Assembly (NCBI GenBank): GCA_965220165.1
Contig: CBDCPJ010000054.1
Span: 385,708-449,707 of the forward strand
Length of the DNA stretch: 64,000 bases
Direction: 5' to 3'
Source of the DNA: Spirochaetia bacterium
GTDB lineage: Bacteria > Spirochaetota > Spirochaetia > G963692905
Both the position numbers and the translations under genes were made by a program. The stretch's first letter is position 1; every line of letters starts with the position of its first letter. The notes beneath the pieces were generated by a model that saw only the letters and a program-made list of their open reading frames with translations, searched no databases and was not told where the DNA came from. Positions 20,579 through 60,509 of the stretch are shown here, in pieces.

Positions 20579-21197
20579 CCCGACGCCCCGTTCTAACAAA
20601 ACGGATCATAGCGAACCCACTCGTTGCCCTTGGTGTCGCCATCCCCTTGCTATCGACTATCATGACAGAGAGTGGGGAACTCCATGCTATGATGATCGCA
20701 AACTGTTTGAATATCTCTTTTTGGATGCGATGCAATCAGGGCTCAGCTGGAATCTCATGCTTATAAAACGAGAAAATTTTCGCCGAGCATTTGCCAATTT
20801 TGATCCAGAGGCTATCGCTCGCTTCGCCAATCGCGACATCGATCGTCTCATGGGCGATGCGACAATCATACGAAATCGCCGAAAAATAGCGGCGGCAATT
20901 GAAAACGCGCGGCAATTTTTAGCGATACAGGAAGAAAATGAAACGTTCGCTCGGTATTTATGGGATTTTGTTGATGGGAACCCCATCGATGACGCTTGGC
21001 AACACCATGAAGATATCCCCACCACTTCGAAGCTCTCTGGAAAATTATCTCGCGATCTTCGCCAACGGGGATTCCGTTTTGTTGGAAGCGTCACTATCTA
21101 CGCCTACATGGAGGGAGCGGGACTCTATAATAATCACCTGCTTTCCTGTTTTAGACATAGCGAAGTCAAGCGATTAGGCGAAGCGCTCCCCTATTAA
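20568..21197 (+). CDS. tag: DNA-3-methyladenine glycosylase I
   Basis: 209 aa; CPWC...YHDREWG...SGLSW motifs of Tag; zinc-binding Cys/His present. Confidence 0.88.
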   Translation: MTDSPTPRSNKTDHSEPTRCPWCRHPLAIDYHDREWGTPCYDDRKLFEYLFLDAMQSGLSWNLMLIKRENFRRAFANFDPEAIARFANRDIDRLMGDATIIRNRRKIAAAIENARQFLAIQEENETFARYLWDFVDGNPIDDAWQHHEDIPTTSKLSGKLSRDLRQRGFRFVGSVTIYAYMEGAGLYNNHLLSCFRHSEVKRLGEALPY

Positions 21198-21215
21198 GAA
21201 GCGCTCCCCTATTAA
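21180..21215 (+). repeat. Perfect 18-bp tandem duplication (GAAGCGCTCCCCTATTAA x2) spanning the tag stop codon
   Basis: Direct reading: the first copy carries the last 5 codons plus TAA of tag; the second copy follows immediately. Confidence 0.9.
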
Positions 21216-31698: not shown

Positions 31699-33261
31699 TT
31701 ATTGGTCTGACTTCTCTATAATCTGCTCTAAACTTATATTCGGCTTGTTGCTCAATACAAGACCGTCGACACGTATAGCGGCCGGCCTTAAATACAACGC
31801 GCGAATGACGCGCTCGTTAATCTCCCGCTCTTCATAGGTCGCTTGATAGACTCGTGTATCGATCATAAGGCCGTTATCGTCGAAGAGCGTGATTTCCAAC
31901 ACTTCTTGGTCGATGCGATAGAAAACATAACTCCCTCGCAATTGGCGATCGGAATCGGAAATCGCCACGTTTGATCCATCGAAATAGAATTCCAGCCCAT
32001 TTTCATTGGTATAGAGCCCTTGCGCAGAAATGGACGACGCAAACGCGACCGATCTACGAGGAATAGATTCCGATGTGTCCAAAGGAAAATAGACTCCGTC
32101 CCATTGATCTGTCTCTCGTATCGAAATACGCACGCCGCCATCTACGCTGGAAACGGTAACGTTCATTCTTACATTGGGAAGAACGCTATTTGCGGCGTTG
32201 ATCAATAAAATAGGGCCGTCGCGGAGATAGAGCAACCGAGAACTATTCCAATTATAGATCTCTTGAAACGTCCCGCGCAGAAGATCGATGGAACGTTGCA
32301 GAGAATCGAAAAAAATTATTGCGCCCTCCCGCTCGTCCCCTCCCCCATCTATTTGGGCGCGCCATCGCCCCGATAAGAATTGCTCAAAAGTCTCTTTGGT
32401 AGCGTTTCTAAGATCGTTTAGCTGCTCCGCGCGAAGATCATTCTCCGTTATTTGTTGCGTCTCATGCTCGACAAACGCGCCGTCTGTTTCTTGCCATTGA
32501 TATATCTGGCGCGTAAGAACAACTTGAAGGCCTTCAACATCGGGCTGTCGCTCATGGCGTTGGTAGGATACGACCGAAAAGGGTCTCCCGTTAAGCCCCA
32601 AATTATAGAGCCGTTCGCGCTCCGCTTGCTCGATTTCTTGCCCGCCATTTGATTGCAACTGCCCAATAGAAAGATAATTGATATTTCTAAGCAATTGATT
32701 GGTCGAGCGTTTAAATATATCCAGAGTATGTTGCCCCTCCGCAGAGACGCCAAAACAGGCGATTTCTATGCTGTGATCTCCGGTGATGTCCATAAATTCG
32801 ATGGTGAACGCCCCGCTATTGCTTGCTTGAGTAACACCCTCCCAAACAAAGCGCATCTCGTTATAGTCGGGGTCGTAATCCGCAAAAAACAAACGAATGC
32901 GGTCATCGAGCGCCTGATCGCGTTTAAATACAACTATCTGCTCCTCTTCTTCGTCCTCGTCAAGATTGATGTCATACACATCGAGCGCGCTGTATTCCTC
33001 GGGAAATGCGGCAATACGGATCGACGCTTCGATAGATTGAGCGATTTCGTCATTTGAAGGCGCTATGCCATATGCCCCTAATAACATTGTATCTTCGCCC
33101 GCGATAGGAACGATATGAAGCGCGCCCGCAGAATTAATTTCGCTTTCGCGATTGCACGACGCGAACATCGCCAGCATAAGAAATATCCCTATCAATGCCT
33201 GGAAAACGTTAATTGGAGCCCGATAGGCAGGCGTTTCGAAAAATATAAAATATTGCGCCAT
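31699..33261 (-). CDS. Hypothetical lipoprotein
   Basis: 520 aa; signal peptide with lipobox LAMFASC; no recognisable domain. Confidence 0.55.
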   Translation of the reverse strand: MAQYFIFFETPAYRAPINVFQALIGIFLMLAMFASCNRESEINSAGALHIVPIAGEDTMLLGAYGIAPSNDEIAQSIEASIRIAAFPEEYSALDVYDINLDEDEEEEQIVVFKRDQALDDRIRLFFADYDPDYNEMRFVWEGVTQASNSGAFTIEFMDITGDHSIEIACFGVSAEGQHTLDIFKRSTNQLLRNINYLSIGQLQSNGGQEIEQAERERLYNLGLNGRPFSVVSYQRHERQPDVEGLQVVLTRQIYQWQETDGAFVEHETQQITENDLRAEQLNDLRNATKETFEQFLSGRWRAQIDGGGDEREGAIIFFDSLQRSIDLLRGTFQEIYNWNSSRLLYLRDGPILLINAANSVLPNVRMNVTVSSVDGGVRISIRETDQWDGVYFPLDTSESIPRRSVAFASSISAQGLYTNENGLEFYFDGSNVAISDSDRQLRGSYVFYRIDQEVLEITLFDDNGLMIDTRVYQATYEEREINERVIRALYLRPAAIRVDGLVLSNKPNISLEQIIEKSDQ

Positions 33262-33358
33262 CGATTATTATACCATATTGATTTATATGCAAAATAGATA
33301 TACTATCGCGACATAATACCTACCCATTGTATTGATAGCAAGCGGGCGGAGAAAATTT

Positions 33359-34912
33359 ATGGAGGAGATAATGAATCGTTCAAGTATAATTATATTTATT
33401 GCAATTTTTTTTGTCGCTTTTCCCCTTTTCGCTATTGACGTAAATCGCGATGAGCTTATTCAGGCTGAGGATATGACAATCGAGTTCGAAAACTACGCCG
33501 GTCCTCAAGATGTTATTTCTAGCGTCGAGGCAATTCGGGGAATAGGCGAAGGGTTAGGAGAAGAGGAAAATATCCCAGGCGCTCGCTATAGTTACGCTGG
33601 GCGATATGATATTATCCATGCGTCGGATCCCGATAACAAGACACTGCTTAACGCGGATATTTTAATCCTAGGCGAGGCGGCTCGCGTAGATCATATCGAC
33701 AACCTGCGTCGCATTATTAGCGGATATATCGAAACGGCGTACGATTACCGACGAGGCGATGCCGATCTTCTCGCGACGCTTATAACGATATACAACGCCA
33801 TCTATCGCGGACAATACGACTTTTTTTCGCAACGTTATAGTCAGTTGGTATTGGACAATATTAGCCCGGAACAGGTGGGATTGCCGCTCAGCTATCGAGA
33901 ATGGCCGGGGCAATCGGAAATTGTCATCCCCTTGGCTCCCGGAGAGACTATCCCCGGATCGTTAAATACCGTCGACATACTACAACTCACCGATAAACAG
34001 GTGCGCGAGGATCTTAGCGCTCGCGAGGATAGAGCGATAACAGAGCGACAGGCGACGGTTGATCTTCTGGAACGATTGGTCGACGAGCTACAAGACGAGA
34101 TTGATACCACGCAAAATAGGACAGTCGATCAAATAAGAACTCTTGACGAAGAGGAGCAGGCGATCGTCCAGCAGCTGAGTGACATCGAGCTTCTTCGCGA
34201 ACAGCTGGAGAGCGACGGCGTAGACGAAGAGGAACTTCAACAGATCGAAGAGTTGCAGACGCAAGAAGAAGCGCTTAAATCGCAACAAGAGGAGGTCGTC
34301 GCCGAACGCGAACAGACAATTGAAGAACAGCAACAGAGAATAGCCGAACTAACCGCGGTCATTCGCGACGAGAGGAGCGAAATAGCCGAAGATCTCAGCG
34401 CGGATCCCGATCTAAGAGCGCCAACGATTCTATTTCCGAGAGTTGTTGTCGGCATTGATGGAAGAGAAACGACGTTGGTAAGAATTGACGCCGCGACAGG
34501 AGAGGTCATAAGACGATCAAGCAACCTCCGTATTATCAGCAGAGATTATACCATCTGGCAATCTGATATTATTGTGGCGTCGCTCAACGAAGATGGAACG
34601 AGGGTCAATCTCGTCGCGCTTGACCAAGAGACATTTGAGACGAGACGATTTTCGGACGCGGCGACACATCCCGACGGGATAATCGTTATAGCCGACGATA
34701 AACTATACACCGCCGTAGACATTGACGGGGAGTGGCACCTAGGCCTATTTGACAACCAACTGCGAATGATTGGTCAATCGTCCGTTACCATCGACCCCAA
34801 CACAGCCATTCTACTCAACCTAGGAATTATCTACGTGCAGGCTATAGATGGACGCGTTATACTCCTTGATGCCGATAATCTAAGCAATGTCGGCGCGGCC
34901 GGCGGCGCATAG
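33359..34912 (+). CDS. Hypothetical secreted protein with a central acidic coiled-coil
   Basis: ATG at 33359 with a GGAG 8 nt upstream; signal peptide; a Glu/Gln-rich heptad region (residues about 230-330); beta-rich C-terminus. Confidence 0.55.
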   Translation: MEEIMNRSSIIIFIAIFFVAFPLFAIDVNRDELIQAEDMTIEFENYAGPQDVISSVEAIRGIGEGLGEEENIPGARYSYAGRYDIIHASDPDNKTLLNADILILGEAARVDHIDNLRRIISGYIETAYDYRRGDADLLATLITIYNAIYRGQYDFFSQRYSQLVLDNISPEQVGLPLSYREWPGQSEIVIPLAPGETIPGSLNTVDILQLTDKQVREDLSAREDRAITERQATVDLLERLVDELQDEIDTTQNRTVDQIRTLDEEEQAIVQQLSDIELLREQLESDGVDEEELQQIEELQTQEEALKSQQEEVVAEREQTIEEQQQRIAELTAVIRDERSEIAEDLSADPDLRAPTILFPRVVVGIDGRETTLVRIDAATGEVIRRSSNLRIISRDYTIWQSDIIVASLNEDGTRVNLVALDQETFETRRFSDAATHPDGIIVIADDKLYTAVDIDGEWHLGLFDNQLRMIGQSSVTIDPNTAILLNLGIIYVQAIDGRVILLDADNLSNVGAAGGA

Positions 34913-35053
34913 GCGCAGATCCTTGCCGCCCCGACAGCCAACTGCTTCATAAAAAACTCCAGCGCCCGCGCTTCGCCCGTAGATACAAAATCTTGGACGG
35001 AGCGCGGGCTTTTTTCAGATGAAGCCGCCGGTAAACTTATATATTATTTTGTA

Positions 35054-38000
35054 TTATTCTAAAAGAGCTTCGTTGATTGGCTCTGAGATTGGCTCTGAAA
35101 GCCCAGAATTAGAAGGCTGAATTATTCTCGCCCTGCTAATAATAACCTCGTTGGAAGCCGGCGCTTCGGCATCAGACTCATCATCTGGCTCGTCGAGCTG
35201 TTCCGCGTTGTCGTCGACTACGGGGACGATCAGATTATCGGAAGCCCCCTCAATATCGGATAGAACGCCCAGTCCATCGGCAGGATCTCCGTAATCGACG
35301 ACGCCCAGCCAATCGACGACGCCCAGTCCATCGGCAGAATCTCCGTAATCGACGACGCCCAGTCCATCGGCGGAATCTCCGTAATCGACGACGCCCAGTC
35401 CATCGGCAGGATCCCCGTAATCGACGACGCCCAGTCCATCGGCGGAATCCCCGTAATCGACGACGCCCAGTCCATCGGCAGGCTCCCCGTAATCGACGAC
35501 GCCCAGTCCATCGGCGGAATCCCCGTAATCGACGACGCCCAGTCCATCGGCAGGATCTCCGTAATCGACGACGCCCAGTCCATCGGCGGAATCTCCGTAA
35601 TCGACGACGCCCAGTCCATCGGCAGCCCAGTCCAATCTCCGTAATCGACGAATAATCGACGACGCCCAGCCCATCGGCAGGAATCCCCGTAATCGACGAC
35701 GCCCAGTCCATCGGCAGGCCCGTAATCGACGACGCCCAGTCCATCGGCAGGAATCCCCGTAAATGGCGGGATCAGCGGCAAAATAGTTTGAGAGCCCAGT
35801 CCATCGGCTTTGCGTTTGCGCTTCCGCGTAAATGGCGATTTGCGCAAAATGCGTTTGCGCTTGCGCTTGCGTTTGCGCTTGCGTTTCGAGCGCCCCTTGC
35901 CGCTCGCCAGCGCCGACTATATCGTCCGATTCGCTAACTTCCTCGACCTCTTGGTCTCCGAGAAAAGACAACGCGGCAATATCTAGCTCCAATTCAACCG
36001 TCTGAAGATTGCTACTCAACCGCTTCACGAGGCCTTGCCGTCGCTCCTGTTCGAAACTATACAGCGTATCGTATTCGGTAGGCTCTGTATTCTCAATAAA
36101 TACCTCGGTTCTTACCCCCAACTCATAGCTCGGTGGCGGCAACAGGCCCGTGCGAGTCGCAATTTCATTGTAGACAATACCTTCGGCCGGCGGCACAAAC
36201 TCTCTGCGAGATAAATTCTTATGAATTTCACTCATATATTTTGCCCAGATAGGGCCTGCCGTTACGGCGCCCGTTTGATTTGTGCCCAACGAGTTGTTCC
36301 CTCCGCGATCAAATCCAATCCATACAGCCGTGGTGTAATAGGGAGAAAATCCCACAGTCCATGCGTCGCTCCAATTTTGGGTAGTGCCGGTTTTGCCAGC
36401 CACAGGAGAGGTAAACCCCCCGGCGATATTCTTAGCGTATCGCAACGTGCCAGAATTTACCGTCGACTGAAGAAGATCGGTCATAACATAGGCGGCTTGC
36501 GGACTAATAATCTGTCGCTCTTCAAGCGTCTGCTCTATCTCTTTTTGCCTCTGCTGTCGAAGATCGAGCACAATTTTGCCATTTTTATCCTCTATATAGA
36601 GAATGGCAAAGGGATCCACCAAAACGCCATTATTGGCAAATGTCGAGTATGCCTGCGCCATTTCGATGGGAGCCAATTCAACAATTCCAAGCCCCACCGG
36701 GTATCGACGCACCAAATTGCGGCTCAGCATATCCTCCGCGGGAATGCCAAGAAGACGGCGCGCTGTGGTAAGGGAATCGTCAAAACCCACCCGCTCGAGC
36801 ACTCGCAAACTGGGCACATTCATCGAATTGGCCAACGCTTGACGCGCCAAAACCGGACCGTGCCAGACGCCTTTGTAGTTCTCGGGCGTGTAGGCGGTGC
36901 CGTCTTCGTTCCAAAACACAACCGGCGCGTCGTAGATCATCGTCGCGGGAGTAATAACGCGCTTATCGATCGCGGCGGCATAGTAGAGCGGCTTAAAGGA
37001 CGAGCCCGGCTCCATCCTTCCGTCAATGGCTCGATTAAATTGGTTGCGCGATTCGAATTTGCTCCCGCCAATCATACTCAAGATATTGCCCGTCCCATTC
37101 TCCAATGTGACTAGCGCCCCCTCGACAATGGTTCGCTGCGCCTCGCGGCGATTGGCATCCAACGAGGCCTTGGTAATATCTCGAAGATCGCTCGATTCGC
37201 CGCGCGAGAACAGAAGAGAGATCATTTCCATCGCCGGCGCGATCTCCGTATTGTAATAGCGCTTGGCATCCCTGCGAATAGGAGCGTCCGCCGCGTAGAT
37301 ATCGGGGATATTAAACGCCAGCGCCAGCGCGTCGACCATGGCGATATATTCATCTCCCCCGCTCACTCTCCGATTATTATTTCGTTGGTAGATACGGTTG
37401 GCGTCTTTGAGCCCGTCGCTTATATGTCGCCGCGCCGCCTGTTGATATCCCAGATCGAGCGTTGTGCGCACCACAAACCCGCCGGTGTTGATATTATTAT
37501 TGCCCAATAGATAGCGATTCTCCAAAAGATATCGCACATATTCGCTAAAATAGGGAGCCAAATCATCGCGCTCGAAAAATGCGGTCGAGGTATTGGCTCG
37601 CGTGAAATCATAGCTCCCCCAATATTCGTTAAACGACTGATCCGCCTCCGCTCTTGACGTGTAGCCCAATTCAACCATTTGGTCGAGCACCGTCCGCTGA
37701 ATTTTGCGCGCGTTATTGGGATTGCGAATAGGGGAATAGATCGTGGGATTAGCCAGCTGGATAACCAGCATAACCGATTCGGCAAGGGTAAGATCGCGCG
37801 CGGAGTGGCCAAAAAAGAACTGAGACGCCGCCTCTATTCCATAGTTGCCGTGGCCAAAAAACATCGTATTGAGATACTTCTCCAGAATCTCGTATTTCGT
37901 CCAGTATCGCTCGACATGGTATGCCCACCAGAGCTCTTTTATCTTGCGCGAAATCGTAATTTCGCTACGATCGGCGTAGAGATGCCCCGCCAGTTGCTGT

Positions 38001-38449
38001 GTCAACGTGCTTCCGCCAGAAAAATAGCTATTGGTTATTTGATTCCAGATAGCGCGCGCCGTCCCGCGAACGCTAAATCCATTGTGTTGGAAAAATGTGC
38101 GATCCTCTCGAGTAATCAGCGCGTTGATCAGGTGGCGAGGGAGGCTGTCGATCGAAATAAGATCGCGCTTCTCTTCGGCGAAGAATTTGGTGATGAGCGC
38201 GCCGTGCCGATCGAGCACTTGGGTGGGAAGCGCCGCGGGCGTCGCCGCCAAAAGGTCGCTCTCGTCGATATTGTATACCGAGGCTATCCCAATGCCGGCG
38301 ACACCGCCGATGCAGATCATCGCAAGCGCGCAGAGAATCCAGAGCAACGCCCTCCATTTAGATGCTACACTTCGCATAGCGCAATGCTTATCATCATCGC
38401 CCGCCCTTGTCAATGCAAAAGATCGGCCATTGTTAGACCAAATCTCCAC
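35054..38449 (-). CDS. mrcA: Class A penicillin-binding protein (PBP1A: GT51 transglycosylase plus transpeptidase) with an approximately 300-aa repetitive C-terminal extension
   Basis: 1131 aa; N-terminal TM; GT51 motifs (EDRTFFQHNGF, GGSTLTQQL); transpeptidase SxxK-like and KTGT motifs. The tail contains (ADGLGVVDYGDS/P)n. Confidence 0.88.
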   Translation of the reverse strand: MEIWSNNGRSFALTRAGDDDKHCAMRSVASKWRALLWILCALAMICIGGVAGIGIASVYNIDESDLLAATPAALPTQVLDRHGALITKFFAEEKRDLISIDSLPRHLINALITREDRTFFQHNGFSVRGTARAIWNQITNSYFSGGSTLTQQLAGHLYADRSEITISRKIKELWWAYHVERYWTKYEILEKYLNTMFFGHGNYGIEAASQFFFGHSARDLTLAESVMLVIQLANPTIYSPIRNPNNARKIQRTVLDQMVELGYTSRAEADQSFNEYWGSYDFTRANTSTAFFERDDLAPYFSEYVRYLLENRYLLGNNNINTGGFVVRTTLDLGYQQAARRHISDGLKDANRIYQRNNNRRVSGGDEYIAMVDALALAFNIPDIYAADAPIRRDAKRYYNTEIAPAMEMISLLFSRGESSDLRDITKASLDANRREAQRTIVEGALVTLENGTGNILSMIGGSKFESRNQFNRAIDGRMEPGSSFKPLYYAAAIDKRVITPATMIYDAPVVFWNEDGTAYTPENYKGVWHGPVLARQALANSMNVPSLRVLERVGFDDSLTTARRLLGIPAEDMLSRNLVRRYPVGLGIVELAPIEMAQAYSTFANNGVLVDPFAILYIEDKNGKIVLDLRQQRQKEIEQTLEERQIISPQAAYVMTDLLQSTVNSGTLRYAKNIAGGFTSPVAGKTGTTQNWSDAWTVGFSPYYTTAVWIGFDRGGNNSLGTNQTGAVTAGPIWAKYMSEIHKNLSRREFVPPAEGIVYNEIATRTGLLPPPSYELGVRTEVFIENTEPTEYDTLYSFEQERRQGLVKRLSSNLQTVELELDIAALSFLGDQEVEEVSESDDIVGAGERQGALETQAQTQAQAQTHFAQIAIYAEAQTQSRWTGLSNYFAADPAIYGDSCRWTGRRRLRACRWTGRRRLRGFLPMGWASSIIRRLRRLDWAADGLGVVDYGDSADGLGVVDYGDPADGLGVVDYGDSADGLGVVDYGEPADGLGVVDYGDSADGLGVVDYGDPADGLGVVDYGDSADGLGVVDYGDSADGLGVVDWLGVVDYGDPADGLGVLSDIEGASDNLIVPVVDDNAEQLDEPDDESDAEAPASNEVIISRARIIQPSNSGLSEPISEPINEALLE
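35262..35770 (-). repeat. About 10 tandem copies of a 39-bp unit inside the PBP1A 3' region, encoding a 13-aa DGLGVVDYGDxA repeat; distal copies are degenerate and out of register
   Basis: Direct reading: the unit acgacgcccagtccatcggc(a/g)g(a/g)at(c/t)(c/t)ccgtaatcg recurs head-to-tail. Shadow ORFs 35230-35847 and 35250-35744 are the same repeat read in other frames. Confidence 0.9.
35806..35895 (-). repeat. GCGCTT/GCGTTT hexanucleotide microsatellite encoding a (TQAQ)n segment of the PBP1A tail
   Basis: gcgtttgcgcttgcgcttgcgtttgcgcttgcgtttc read directly. Confidence 0.85.
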
Positions 38450-59753: not shown

Positions 59754-60509
59754 ATGAAGGCCGCTATAAAATTATGTGTAGCGTCGCTCTTACTATCGGC
59801 TTGCGCGACGACACAAACGAGCGATCAAATCCAAGACGCGCTTGCGAGCAACGAGCCAAAAACATTGGAAGCGACTGAACAGGATGCCGCTCCATCGAAC
59901 ATATCGCCTGATACCGCTGTCTCCGAGCCTGCTTTCATCTCTAGCGCGCCATTAGGAACAGAATCGCCGCCAATCTCGGCGATTCGATTACTCTCGCCGA
60001 AGCCGCGAGTACGCCAACTCGGCACCCGCGAAACCCTCGCCGAAGCGTTCCCGACAGAACGTCTCTCCGCAAATGGATGGACTCATTCGCTATCGACCAC
60101 CATCGCGCGCCCGGCATCGCCAGAAATTATCGCGCCACTCGCCTCGCTGATCATAGCCGCGCCCAACTCGCCGACGATAGCGACGACAATACCGTCCGCT
60201 CCGACGACCGATCTATTCGAAACGACGATCGACGCCGCGCGAGGAGCCCAAGAAGCAGAAAACTTTGGCGAGATCTCTATCGAGTCTTCTTCAATGGAGC
60301 CCGCGACGATAGAGAATCCCTTTTTTTCGCGAAGCCCGATATTTCTCGCCGCCGCGCCATCCATCCCGCCAATAGATCAGCCCGCGATCGCATCAGACAT
60401 GATCGCAGACAGAACCGCCGCCGCTCCTGCCGCCGCTCCTGCCGCCTCCCGTCGACCCTTCCGTCGTGATCGACGGACTCCTGACGCCGCCTCCGAGCGC
60501 CGATATTGA
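59754..60509 (+). CDS. Hypothetical lipoprotein, N-terminal portion (probably one gene with 60466-61419)
   Basis: GAGGAGGGG RBS; signal peptide with lipobox LLSAC; low-complexity Ala/Pro/Ser-rich region. The frame degenerates into an Arg-rich tail after 60445. Confidence 0.5.
   Translation: MKAAIKLCVASLLLSACATTQTSDQIQDALASNEPKTLEATEQDAAPSNISPDTAVSEPAFISSAPLGTESPPISAIRLLSPKPRVRQLGTRETLAEAFPTERLSANGWTHSLSTTIARPASPEIIAPLASLIIAAPNSPTIATTIPSAPTTDLFETTIDAARGAQEAENFGEISIESSSMEPATIENPFFSRSPIFLAAAPSIPPIDQPAIASDMIADRTAAAPAAAPAASRRPFRRDRRTPDAASERRY

Follow-up and report, generated by a model that had tools for sequence, protein, structure and literature searches.

A 36-bp coding minisatellite in the acidic C-terminal tail of a spirochaete class A penicillin-binding protein differs between two nearly identical haplotypes

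The 64,000-nucleotide stretch of DNA analyzed here (the window; an uncultured Spirochaetia bacterium, contig CBDCPJ010000054.1, positions 385,708 to 449,707, with coordinates below counted from its first letter) encodes PBP1A, a class A penicillin-binding protein (PBP) whose C-terminal tail is built largely from a tandem array of near-identical 36-bp units. The same array is differently arranged in a second, otherwise almost identical haplotype. We propose, with a probability of roughly 55%, that a coding minisatellite driven by slippage and recombination has expanded a disordered periplasmic tail, which would tolerate changes of reading frame on condition that its end is still read in frame.

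According to Tandem Repeats Finder (TRF), the array covers 35311-35762, with 12.1 copies at a period of 36 and a score of 589; a separate hexanucleotide array (period 6/12) lies at 35850-35886. The unit comprises 36 bp and encodes the 12 residues ADGLGVVDYGD[S/P], also written (ADGLGVVDYGDS)n. Its 26-nt core occurs 11 times in the window, always inside the array, against 0 occurrences expected from shuffled sequences; the units are thus arranged head-to-tail and are near-identical well above chance, and the array is the sole sizeable tandem repeat of the window. The initial annotation had proposed some ten tandem 39-bp units at this place in the PBP1A tail; the array itself was confirmed by TRF and by the shuffles, but the unit is 36 bp and 12 residues long rather than 39 bp and 13 residues. 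Counted from the last conserved motif of the enzyme core (NTEP), the tail spans ~345 aa and has the following parts, given from its N-terminal to its C-terminal side with the supporting evidence in brackets.

35887..36091, minus strand: start of the tail, with a conserved helix (FEQERRQGLVKRL...) followed by the acidic linker shared by the family (alignment A1; AlphaFold2 confidence drops past residue ~805; composition)
35850..35886, minus strand: hexanucleotide microsatellite (GCGCAA/ACGCAA)n of 5.5 units, encoding (T/A)Q repeats (TRF; parse against the second haplotype)
35810..35849, minus strand: second, degenerate leader copy (HFAQIAIYAE), then two further hexanucleotide units (AQTQ) (local alignment)
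35797..35808, minus strand: 12-nt fragment of a repeat unit, CCGATGGACTGG, in frame ahead of the leader, reading RWTG and missing from the second haplotype (two-haplotype parse)
35746..35796, minus strand: array leader LSNYFAADPAIYGDS, itself a degenerate unit, ending in GATTCCTGCC, where an extra T makes the first +1 shift (single-T gap against the second haplotype at 35749)
35713..35745, minus strand: 33-bp out-of-frame unit in the +1 register (unit lengths and frames)
35676..35712, minus strand: 37-bp out-of-frame unit with the second +1 shift (unit lengths and frames)
35621..35675, minus strand: scrambled piece of 39+16 = 55 bp with the third +1 shift (unit lengths and frames)
35333..35620, minus strand: eight units of exactly 36 bp, in frame with the PBP, (ADGLGVVDYG[D/E][S/P])8 (TRF; unit parse; core count)
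35315..35332, minus strand: half unit of 18 bp (identical in both haplotypes)
35279..35314, minus strand: variant unit DWLGVVDYGDPA (identical in both haplotypes)
35265..35278, minus strand: truncated last unit, DGLGV- (identical in both haplotypes)
35057..35264, minus strand: post-repeat acidic end of 69 aa, net charge -16, finishing in ...INEALLE (one substitution against the second haplotype)

The degenerate leader copy at 35810-35849 aligns locally to the array leader with 25/31 identities, a score reached by 0/2000 shuffles. The copies read out of frame (35621-35751) lie on the N-terminal, gene-proximal side of the array and give RWTGRRRLR in the +1 register and then PMGWASSII in the +2 register. 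Some copies are therefore indeed the same DNA read in another register, as had been noticed initially; the accompanying statement that the drifted copies are the distal ones was mistaken. The stretch 35621..35745 translates to CRWTGRRRLRACRWTGRRRLRGFLPMGWASSIIRRLRRLDWA (42 aa, net charge +13), and the complete 37-bp unit type is GATGGACTGGGCGTCGTCGATTACGGGGATTCCTGCC. The 120 in-frame repeat residues, of the type ADGLGVVDYGDSADGLGVVDYGDPADGLGVVDYG, carry a net charge of -29; what had been counted as about nine near-perfect in-frame repeats resolves into eight units of exact length followed by the half, variant and truncated units. The post-repeat end, from which the peptide IIQPSNSGLSEPISEPINEALLE is taken, contains a perfect 12-bp x2 tandem repeat at 35075-35098 (GATTGGCTCTGA on the plus strand) that encodes SEPISEPI and is identical in the second haplotype. 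None of the three sense frames is interrupted within the array (open reading frames, ORFs, 35230..35847 and 35250..35744), and both alternative frames meet a stop codon 4-12 codons past it. We rejected the openness of all three frames as a special property of this repeat, given its presence in 21% of the units obtained by shuffling and in 12% of those recoded synonymously.

The second haplotype was recovered by a protein search that returned a close relative of the window protein (P0002, 1083 aa) on ENA contig ERZ25072490:ctg193789_3.48x_l, hereafter locus L001. In ~14.7 kb outside the tail, L001 and the window differ by 11 substitutions and 0 indels, and their flanks are 99.93% identical; within the ~550 bp of the tail they are separated by many indels and rearrangements. 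L001 has 11 hexanucleotide units compared with 5.5 (+2) in the window, is devoid of the second leader copy (most of 35810-35849 is absent, with a 21-nt gap at 35850), and carries nine full-length units followed by the same half, variant and truncated end units as the window. Its three 37-bp units occupy positions other than in the window, with the result that the L001 protein has two units in frame, one in +1 (RWAGRRRLR) and five in +2 (PMDWASSIT) before the frame is regained; a frame-specific peptide of this type is LPMDWASSITEILPMGWASSITG.... Both haplotypes run through the frames 0, +1, +2 and back to 0 via exactly three +1 events, without a single -1 event. The ends of the array are conserved between the two and its interior is variable, as expected for unequal exchange. 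The arrays thus differ in the number, order and length of their units, which is the behavior of a variable-number tandem repeat (VNTR), and the prediction in the initial annotation that copy number varies between strains was borne out, together with a longer hexanucleotide run and other positions of the frame shifts.

The genome, metagenome and protein collections searched yielded no third haplotype. In the GTDB representative genomes, among which this species is not represented, neither a scan with the back-translated peptide nor an exact scan with the 26-nt core gave a match, and a 20-nt unit pattern applied to metagenome contigs matched 58 loci once each, none of them with an array, and we judged these to be chance matches. 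A protein search with the 299-aa tail retrieved a spurious ORF with a 9-aa repeat (P0121) only, and one with the 86-aa unique end retrieved nothing; both count as weak evidence because the word-indexed search missed even the identical proteins P0001 and P0002.

The gene that carries the array is an intact bifunctional class A PBP, since both Pfam domains are found in it and the catalytic motifs are visible in its translation.

35054..38449, minus strand: PBP1A ORF, unbroken, 1131 aa from the first GTG, with the stop codon at 35054-35056 (ORF list)
37676..38203, minus strand: GT51 glycosyltransferase domain, aa 83-258 (Pfam PF00912 Transgly, E=2.7e-56)
36314..37120, minus strand: transpeptidase domain, aa 444-712 (Pfam PF00905, E=6.1e-31)

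Database gene calls for this protein begin 12 or 24 codons downstream of the first GTG. The E-D-x-x-F-x-x-H-x-G motif of the GT51 domain reads REDRTFFQHNGF, and the SxxK, SxN and KTG motifs of the transpeptidase are present as SSFK, SMN and KTGT, invariant in the family alignment A1. The N-terminal hydrophobic stretch WRALLWILCALAMICIGGVAGIGIASV and an AlphaFold2 (AF2) helix at residues 13-47 indicate a single N-terminal membrane anchor, which presumably puts the catalytic domains outside the cytoplasm; given this anchor and the standard topology of class A PBPs, the tail would be periplasmic and not the "surface" appendage suggested initially. A protein search identified a 100% match to the window protein on an 834-kb contig (P0001), as well as ~120 spirochaete PBP1A proteins at 52-67% identity.

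This family set of ~120 homologues (825-920 aa) comes from metagenome-assembled genomes of Spirochaetaceae and Alkalispirochaeta, and from Spirochaeta africana, S. thermophila and Salinispira pacifica. Every one of them has an Asp/Glu-rich tail of 60-144 aa (median 89) after a conserved GTEP..FD..FE..RL helix, and in 108/120 the extreme C-terminus is NP[L/F/Y]L[D/E], of which the window protein (...NEALLE, 35057-35071) and its counterpart in the nearest other species (P0003, ...TALLD) retain only ALL[D/E]. Tripled in length by the repeat, the window tail counts 341 aa after this conserved motif and is more than twice as long as the longest other tail of the family. The initial annotation had described an extension of about 300 aa; the whole tail is somewhat longer than that, but relative to the family the net expansion amounts to ~200-250 aa. 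Because the whole family already has an acidic tail, the comparison of sequences identifies the feature of the window as the expansion of a tail that was already there, rather than the gain of a novel extension by a protein terminating at the transpeptidase domain. The premise that class A PBPs normally end soon after this domain does not hold for the spirochaete homologues, nor for the Gram-positive PBPs with known C-terminal disordered regions (PMC9732909, PMC12041528).

Two further members of the family have repeats of their own in the tail. P0098 (907 aa, on a 930-kb ENA contig) contains an unrelated and independent tandem repeat, NTNTANNDAPNDVLDTLRNVKL, in about four copies, and in the homologue P0119 the end motif SNPYLD is duplicated; together, these cases suggest that tail repeats arise recurrently in PBP1A proteins. 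The NP[L/F/Y]L[D/E]-COOH terminus looks like a short linear motif for a putative partner. In the AF2 model of a typical homologue, P0016, the NPLLD end has low confidence and is not docked on the enzyme. We found no literature on this terminal motif in spirochaete PBP1A proteins, and literature searches gave nothing relevant either for the C-termini of spirochaete PBP1A or for tandem repeats of bacteria with compensatory frameshifts. The family resemblance of the end also bears on the possibility, raised with the initial annotation, that the true stop lies ahead of the repeats: this is unlikely, as both assemblies regain the same frame and the acidic ...ALLE end resembles the LL[D/E] of the family.

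The structure of the tail was predicted by AF2 for a 1119-residue protein with an alignment of 75 sequences. The core is modeled confidently up to residue ~805, a helix of moderate confidence covers the TQAQ region (841-877), and residues 874-1119 have pLDDT values of ~30 and form no secondary structure; the tail of P0016 (793-849) is equally low in confidence. The tail thus follows the last folded domain, forms the extreme C-terminus, and is predicted to be unstructured, from an alignment that is shallow in the repeat, which corresponds to a C-terminal disordered region of a class A PBP. We also considered whether the in-frame repeats might constitute a folded functional module, either a calcium-binding beta-roll-like or a peptidoglycan-binding one, with copy number tuning the binding. 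Such a module would suit the Asp/Gly-rich and strictly periodic unit, the run of eight consecutive units of exact length, and the variation among units, which is mostly confined to synonymous third positions or to conservative exchanges (D/E, S/P). It is very improbable nevertheless. Although RTX or beta-roll repeats are likewise Asp/Gly-rich tandem peptides, they are nonapeptides (GGxGxDxUx, Pfam HemolysinCabind), whereas the unit described here has a period of 12 rather than 9, matches no profile, and is predicted to form no beta strands. Pfam at E<=10 gave no family in either half of the tail, including calcium-binding and wall-binding ones (e.g. CW_binding, LysM, SPOR, PASTA, and SLH), and no PDB sequence matches the tail. 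A HMMER search of the in-frame repeats against the full library of 1.84 billion representatives produced 74 matches; those that were inspected are unrelated proteins of low complexity and periodic sequence, in which no Pfam family covers the matching region. Moreover, L001 keeps only ~6 units in frame, in two separate blocks. The calcium- or cell-wall-binding character that had been attributed to the repeat peptide is therefore not upheld, and the tail probably does not form a folded binding domain.

The HMMER matches were rejected as homologues, many of them being eukaryote-like tandem-repeat proteins that match by periodicity and composition. Two proteins have repeats that resemble the unit. 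P0133 (365 aa), a protein with a signal peptide, has an N-terminal acidic 12-aa repeat (DPADSTGVADVD) agreeing with the unit at 7/12 positions, and a weak, below-cutoff match to a FlgD-Ig-like domain near its C-terminus, whereas P0130 (803 aa) contains 12-aa YGDxxAGxxxxK repeats. Both are probably convergent acidic linkers and not homologues of the PBP1A repeat.

The proposed tolerance of frame changes depends on the frame-shifted units being real rather than consensus errors, which we regard as somewhat the likelier case. The three complete 37-bp units (35676-35712 in the window; units 1 and 7 in L001) are identical in sequence across the two assemblies, and GGGG precedes all four GATTCCTGCC junctions, a place where 11/17 normal units have GGA. 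This identity and the constant GGGG context suggest that the 37-bp unit is an inherited unit variant and not the product of random errors. The main alternative is that the array is real but its out-of-frame units are assembly or consensus artefacts, in which misregistered or strain-mixed reads produced single-base insertions, and that the true protein has ~12-14 in-frame DGLGVVDYGD units. This account is less likely, but several points favor it: indel differences between the assemblies are confined to the repeat zone, the coverage of L001 is only 3.48x according to its record name, the +1 units equal normal P-type units plus one duplicated base (GATCCT to GATTCCT, GAGAT to GAGGAT), and the out-of-frame units of L001 otherwise match the sequence types of in-frame window units. 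The sequence GATTCCTGCC could have resulted from real variants (TCCGCC, TCTGCC and CCTGCC) being merged column by column into one consensus; the L001 array, however, lacks the GGGGATTCCGCC and GGGGATCCTGCC units needed to build such a hybrid. Errors would also have had to yield exactly three +1 and zero -1 events with restoration of the frame in each assembly. The flank of 14.7 kb without indel discrepancies makes the general indel error negligible in both assemblies, ORFs across the window are intact, and the record name of L001 has the form used by a long-read metagenome assembler, so that single reads probably spanned the whole array.

In the reading that we favor, a 36-bp minisatellite and a hexanucleotide microsatellite would have expanded within the disordered acidic periplasmic tail common to the spirochaete PBP1A family, and replication slippage together with unequal recombination among the near-identical units would keep rebuilding the array, which would be why two almost identical strains already differ in it. 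Single-base duplications within units would only switch a stretch of the tail from the acidic DGLGVVDYGD to the basic RWTGRRRLR or to PMDWASSIT, without truncation of the protein, because the unit has no stop codon in any sense frame. Selection appears mainly to keep the total length a multiple of three, thereby preserving the acidic end and the LL[D/E] at its terminus. The tail is most probably a sequence-tolerant flexible spacer or disordered region, comparable to that of Bacillus subtilis PBP1.

We also considered two readings in which recombination at the array switches the frame. If the array were a contingency (phase-variation) locus, unequal recombination would add or remove 37-bp units and in this way turn the acidic end with LL[D/E] on or off and alter the amount of basic alternative-frame peptide. 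The 37-bp units do lie in an array that demonstrably recombines, out-of-frame translation does end within the 4-12 codons mentioned above, and a unit carries a net charge of -3 or of about +5 depending on the frame in which it is read. We assign this only a slight probability, since ordinary changes of copy number involve the canonical units, whose lengths (36 and 6 bp) are divisible by three, and do not switch the frame, and since both haplotypes, the only two available, are in the "on" state, with no "off" (out-of-frame) variant found. A broader version, in which the 37-bp units are real, recombination-driven frame toggles and populations continuously generate tails with acidic, basic and hydrophobic stretches, some losing LL[D/E], is unlikely too, albeit not as remote; if true, an essential peptidoglycan synthase would be subject to a type of phase or charge variation.

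Several observations weigh against the expansion of a disordered, frame-tolerant tail as we propose it. The depth of the AF2 alignment in the repeat is essentially nil, which makes low confidence weak evidence for disorder. Units vary at seven positions, four of which fall on the third base of a codon in the DGLGVVDYGD frame; this faintly hints that the peptide sequence has mattered, although it is not significant at seven sites. Except for the last residues ALL[D/E], BLASTP did not find the post-repeat segment to be significantly similar to the tail of P0003 (E=3.6), and only composition and these residues suggest that the segment is orthologous. The databases searched yield two haplotypes only, hence the arguments for the reality of the +1 units are indirect; frame restoration in 2/2 assemblies has a chance of ~1 in 9 under random errors, and Cys, Trp and Arg runs, atypical of this acidic tail, occur in the peptides read out of frame. 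Finally, the B. subtilis protein used as a model belongs to a monoderm, and what applies to it may not transfer to a diderm spirochaete.

Coding minisatellites or VNTRs in bacterial envelope proteins consist of head-to-tail, near-identical units whose length is a multiple of 3 bp, differ between close strains, and have stable edges and a dynamic interior. The PBP1A array resembles them in its units, in the differences between strains, and in its stable edges and dynamic interior; however, those VNTRs belong to surface adhesins and antigens, whereas this array is located in an essential periplasmic peptidoglycan synthase and includes frame-shifted units that are compensated and translated. Among class A PBPs, the closest parallel is B. 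subtilis PBP1 (ponA), in which efficient wall synthesis depends on a 121-aa C-terminal disordered region (Brunet et al., 2022, PMC9732909); this region works when scrambled or swapped for unrelated disordered regions, and is proposed to steer the synthase to gaps in the peptidoglycan meshwork (PMC9732909). As in PBP1 and its Gram-positive homologues, the spirochaete tail is an extracytoplasmic, low-complexity, predicted-disordered extension at the extreme C-terminus, poorly conserved among relatives, and a similar tolerance of scrambling would explain its tolerance of frame changes. Unlike the B. subtilis region, it is strongly acidic instead of Asn/Ser/Gln-rich, ~3x longer (345 vs 121 aa), built from near-identical 36-bp units, and closed by a terminal motif of the family (NPLLD in relatives, ALLE here). 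Streptococcal PBP1a and PBP1b also possess C-terminal disordered tails, which are Ser/Thr-rich and O-glycosylated and modulate protein level or function (PMC12041528), whereas the spirochaete tail is Asp/Gly/Val-rich with no evidence of glycosylation. Thus, the feature combines a known C-terminal disordered tail of class A PBPs with a coding VNTR and is not a new kind of domain.

In the surroundings of the gene, PBP1A is followed by a convergent gene for a Borrelia P83/100-family protein (33332-34912, E=9.4e-71) and then by one for a protein with a pallilysin beta-barrel domain (31699-33261, E=1.3e-10). This gene order (window 31699-38449) is kept in L001 and in the nearest other species (L060). 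A scan of the intergenic region 3' of PBP1A for terminators and promoters found none. Elsewhere in the window, small perfect tandem repeats of 18 bp x2 (21180-21215) and 12 bp x2.5 (60417-60446, GCCGCCGCTCCT) are present.

In practical terms, the array offers a strain-typing marker and is a site at which assemblies and gene calls probably cannot be relied on. The NP[L/F/Y]LD-COOH terminus of the family could mark a partner or regulator of peptidoglycan synthesis; to our knowledge, no Lpo-type activators of class A PBPs have been described in the spirochaete phylum. If the frame-shifted units are real, the two haplotypes would represent a natural experiment on a class A PBP whose tail withstands thorough alteration of both its sequence and its charge while the end of the tail stays in frame, and they would extend to a diderm spirochaete a property known from the scrambling of B. 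subtilis PBP1.

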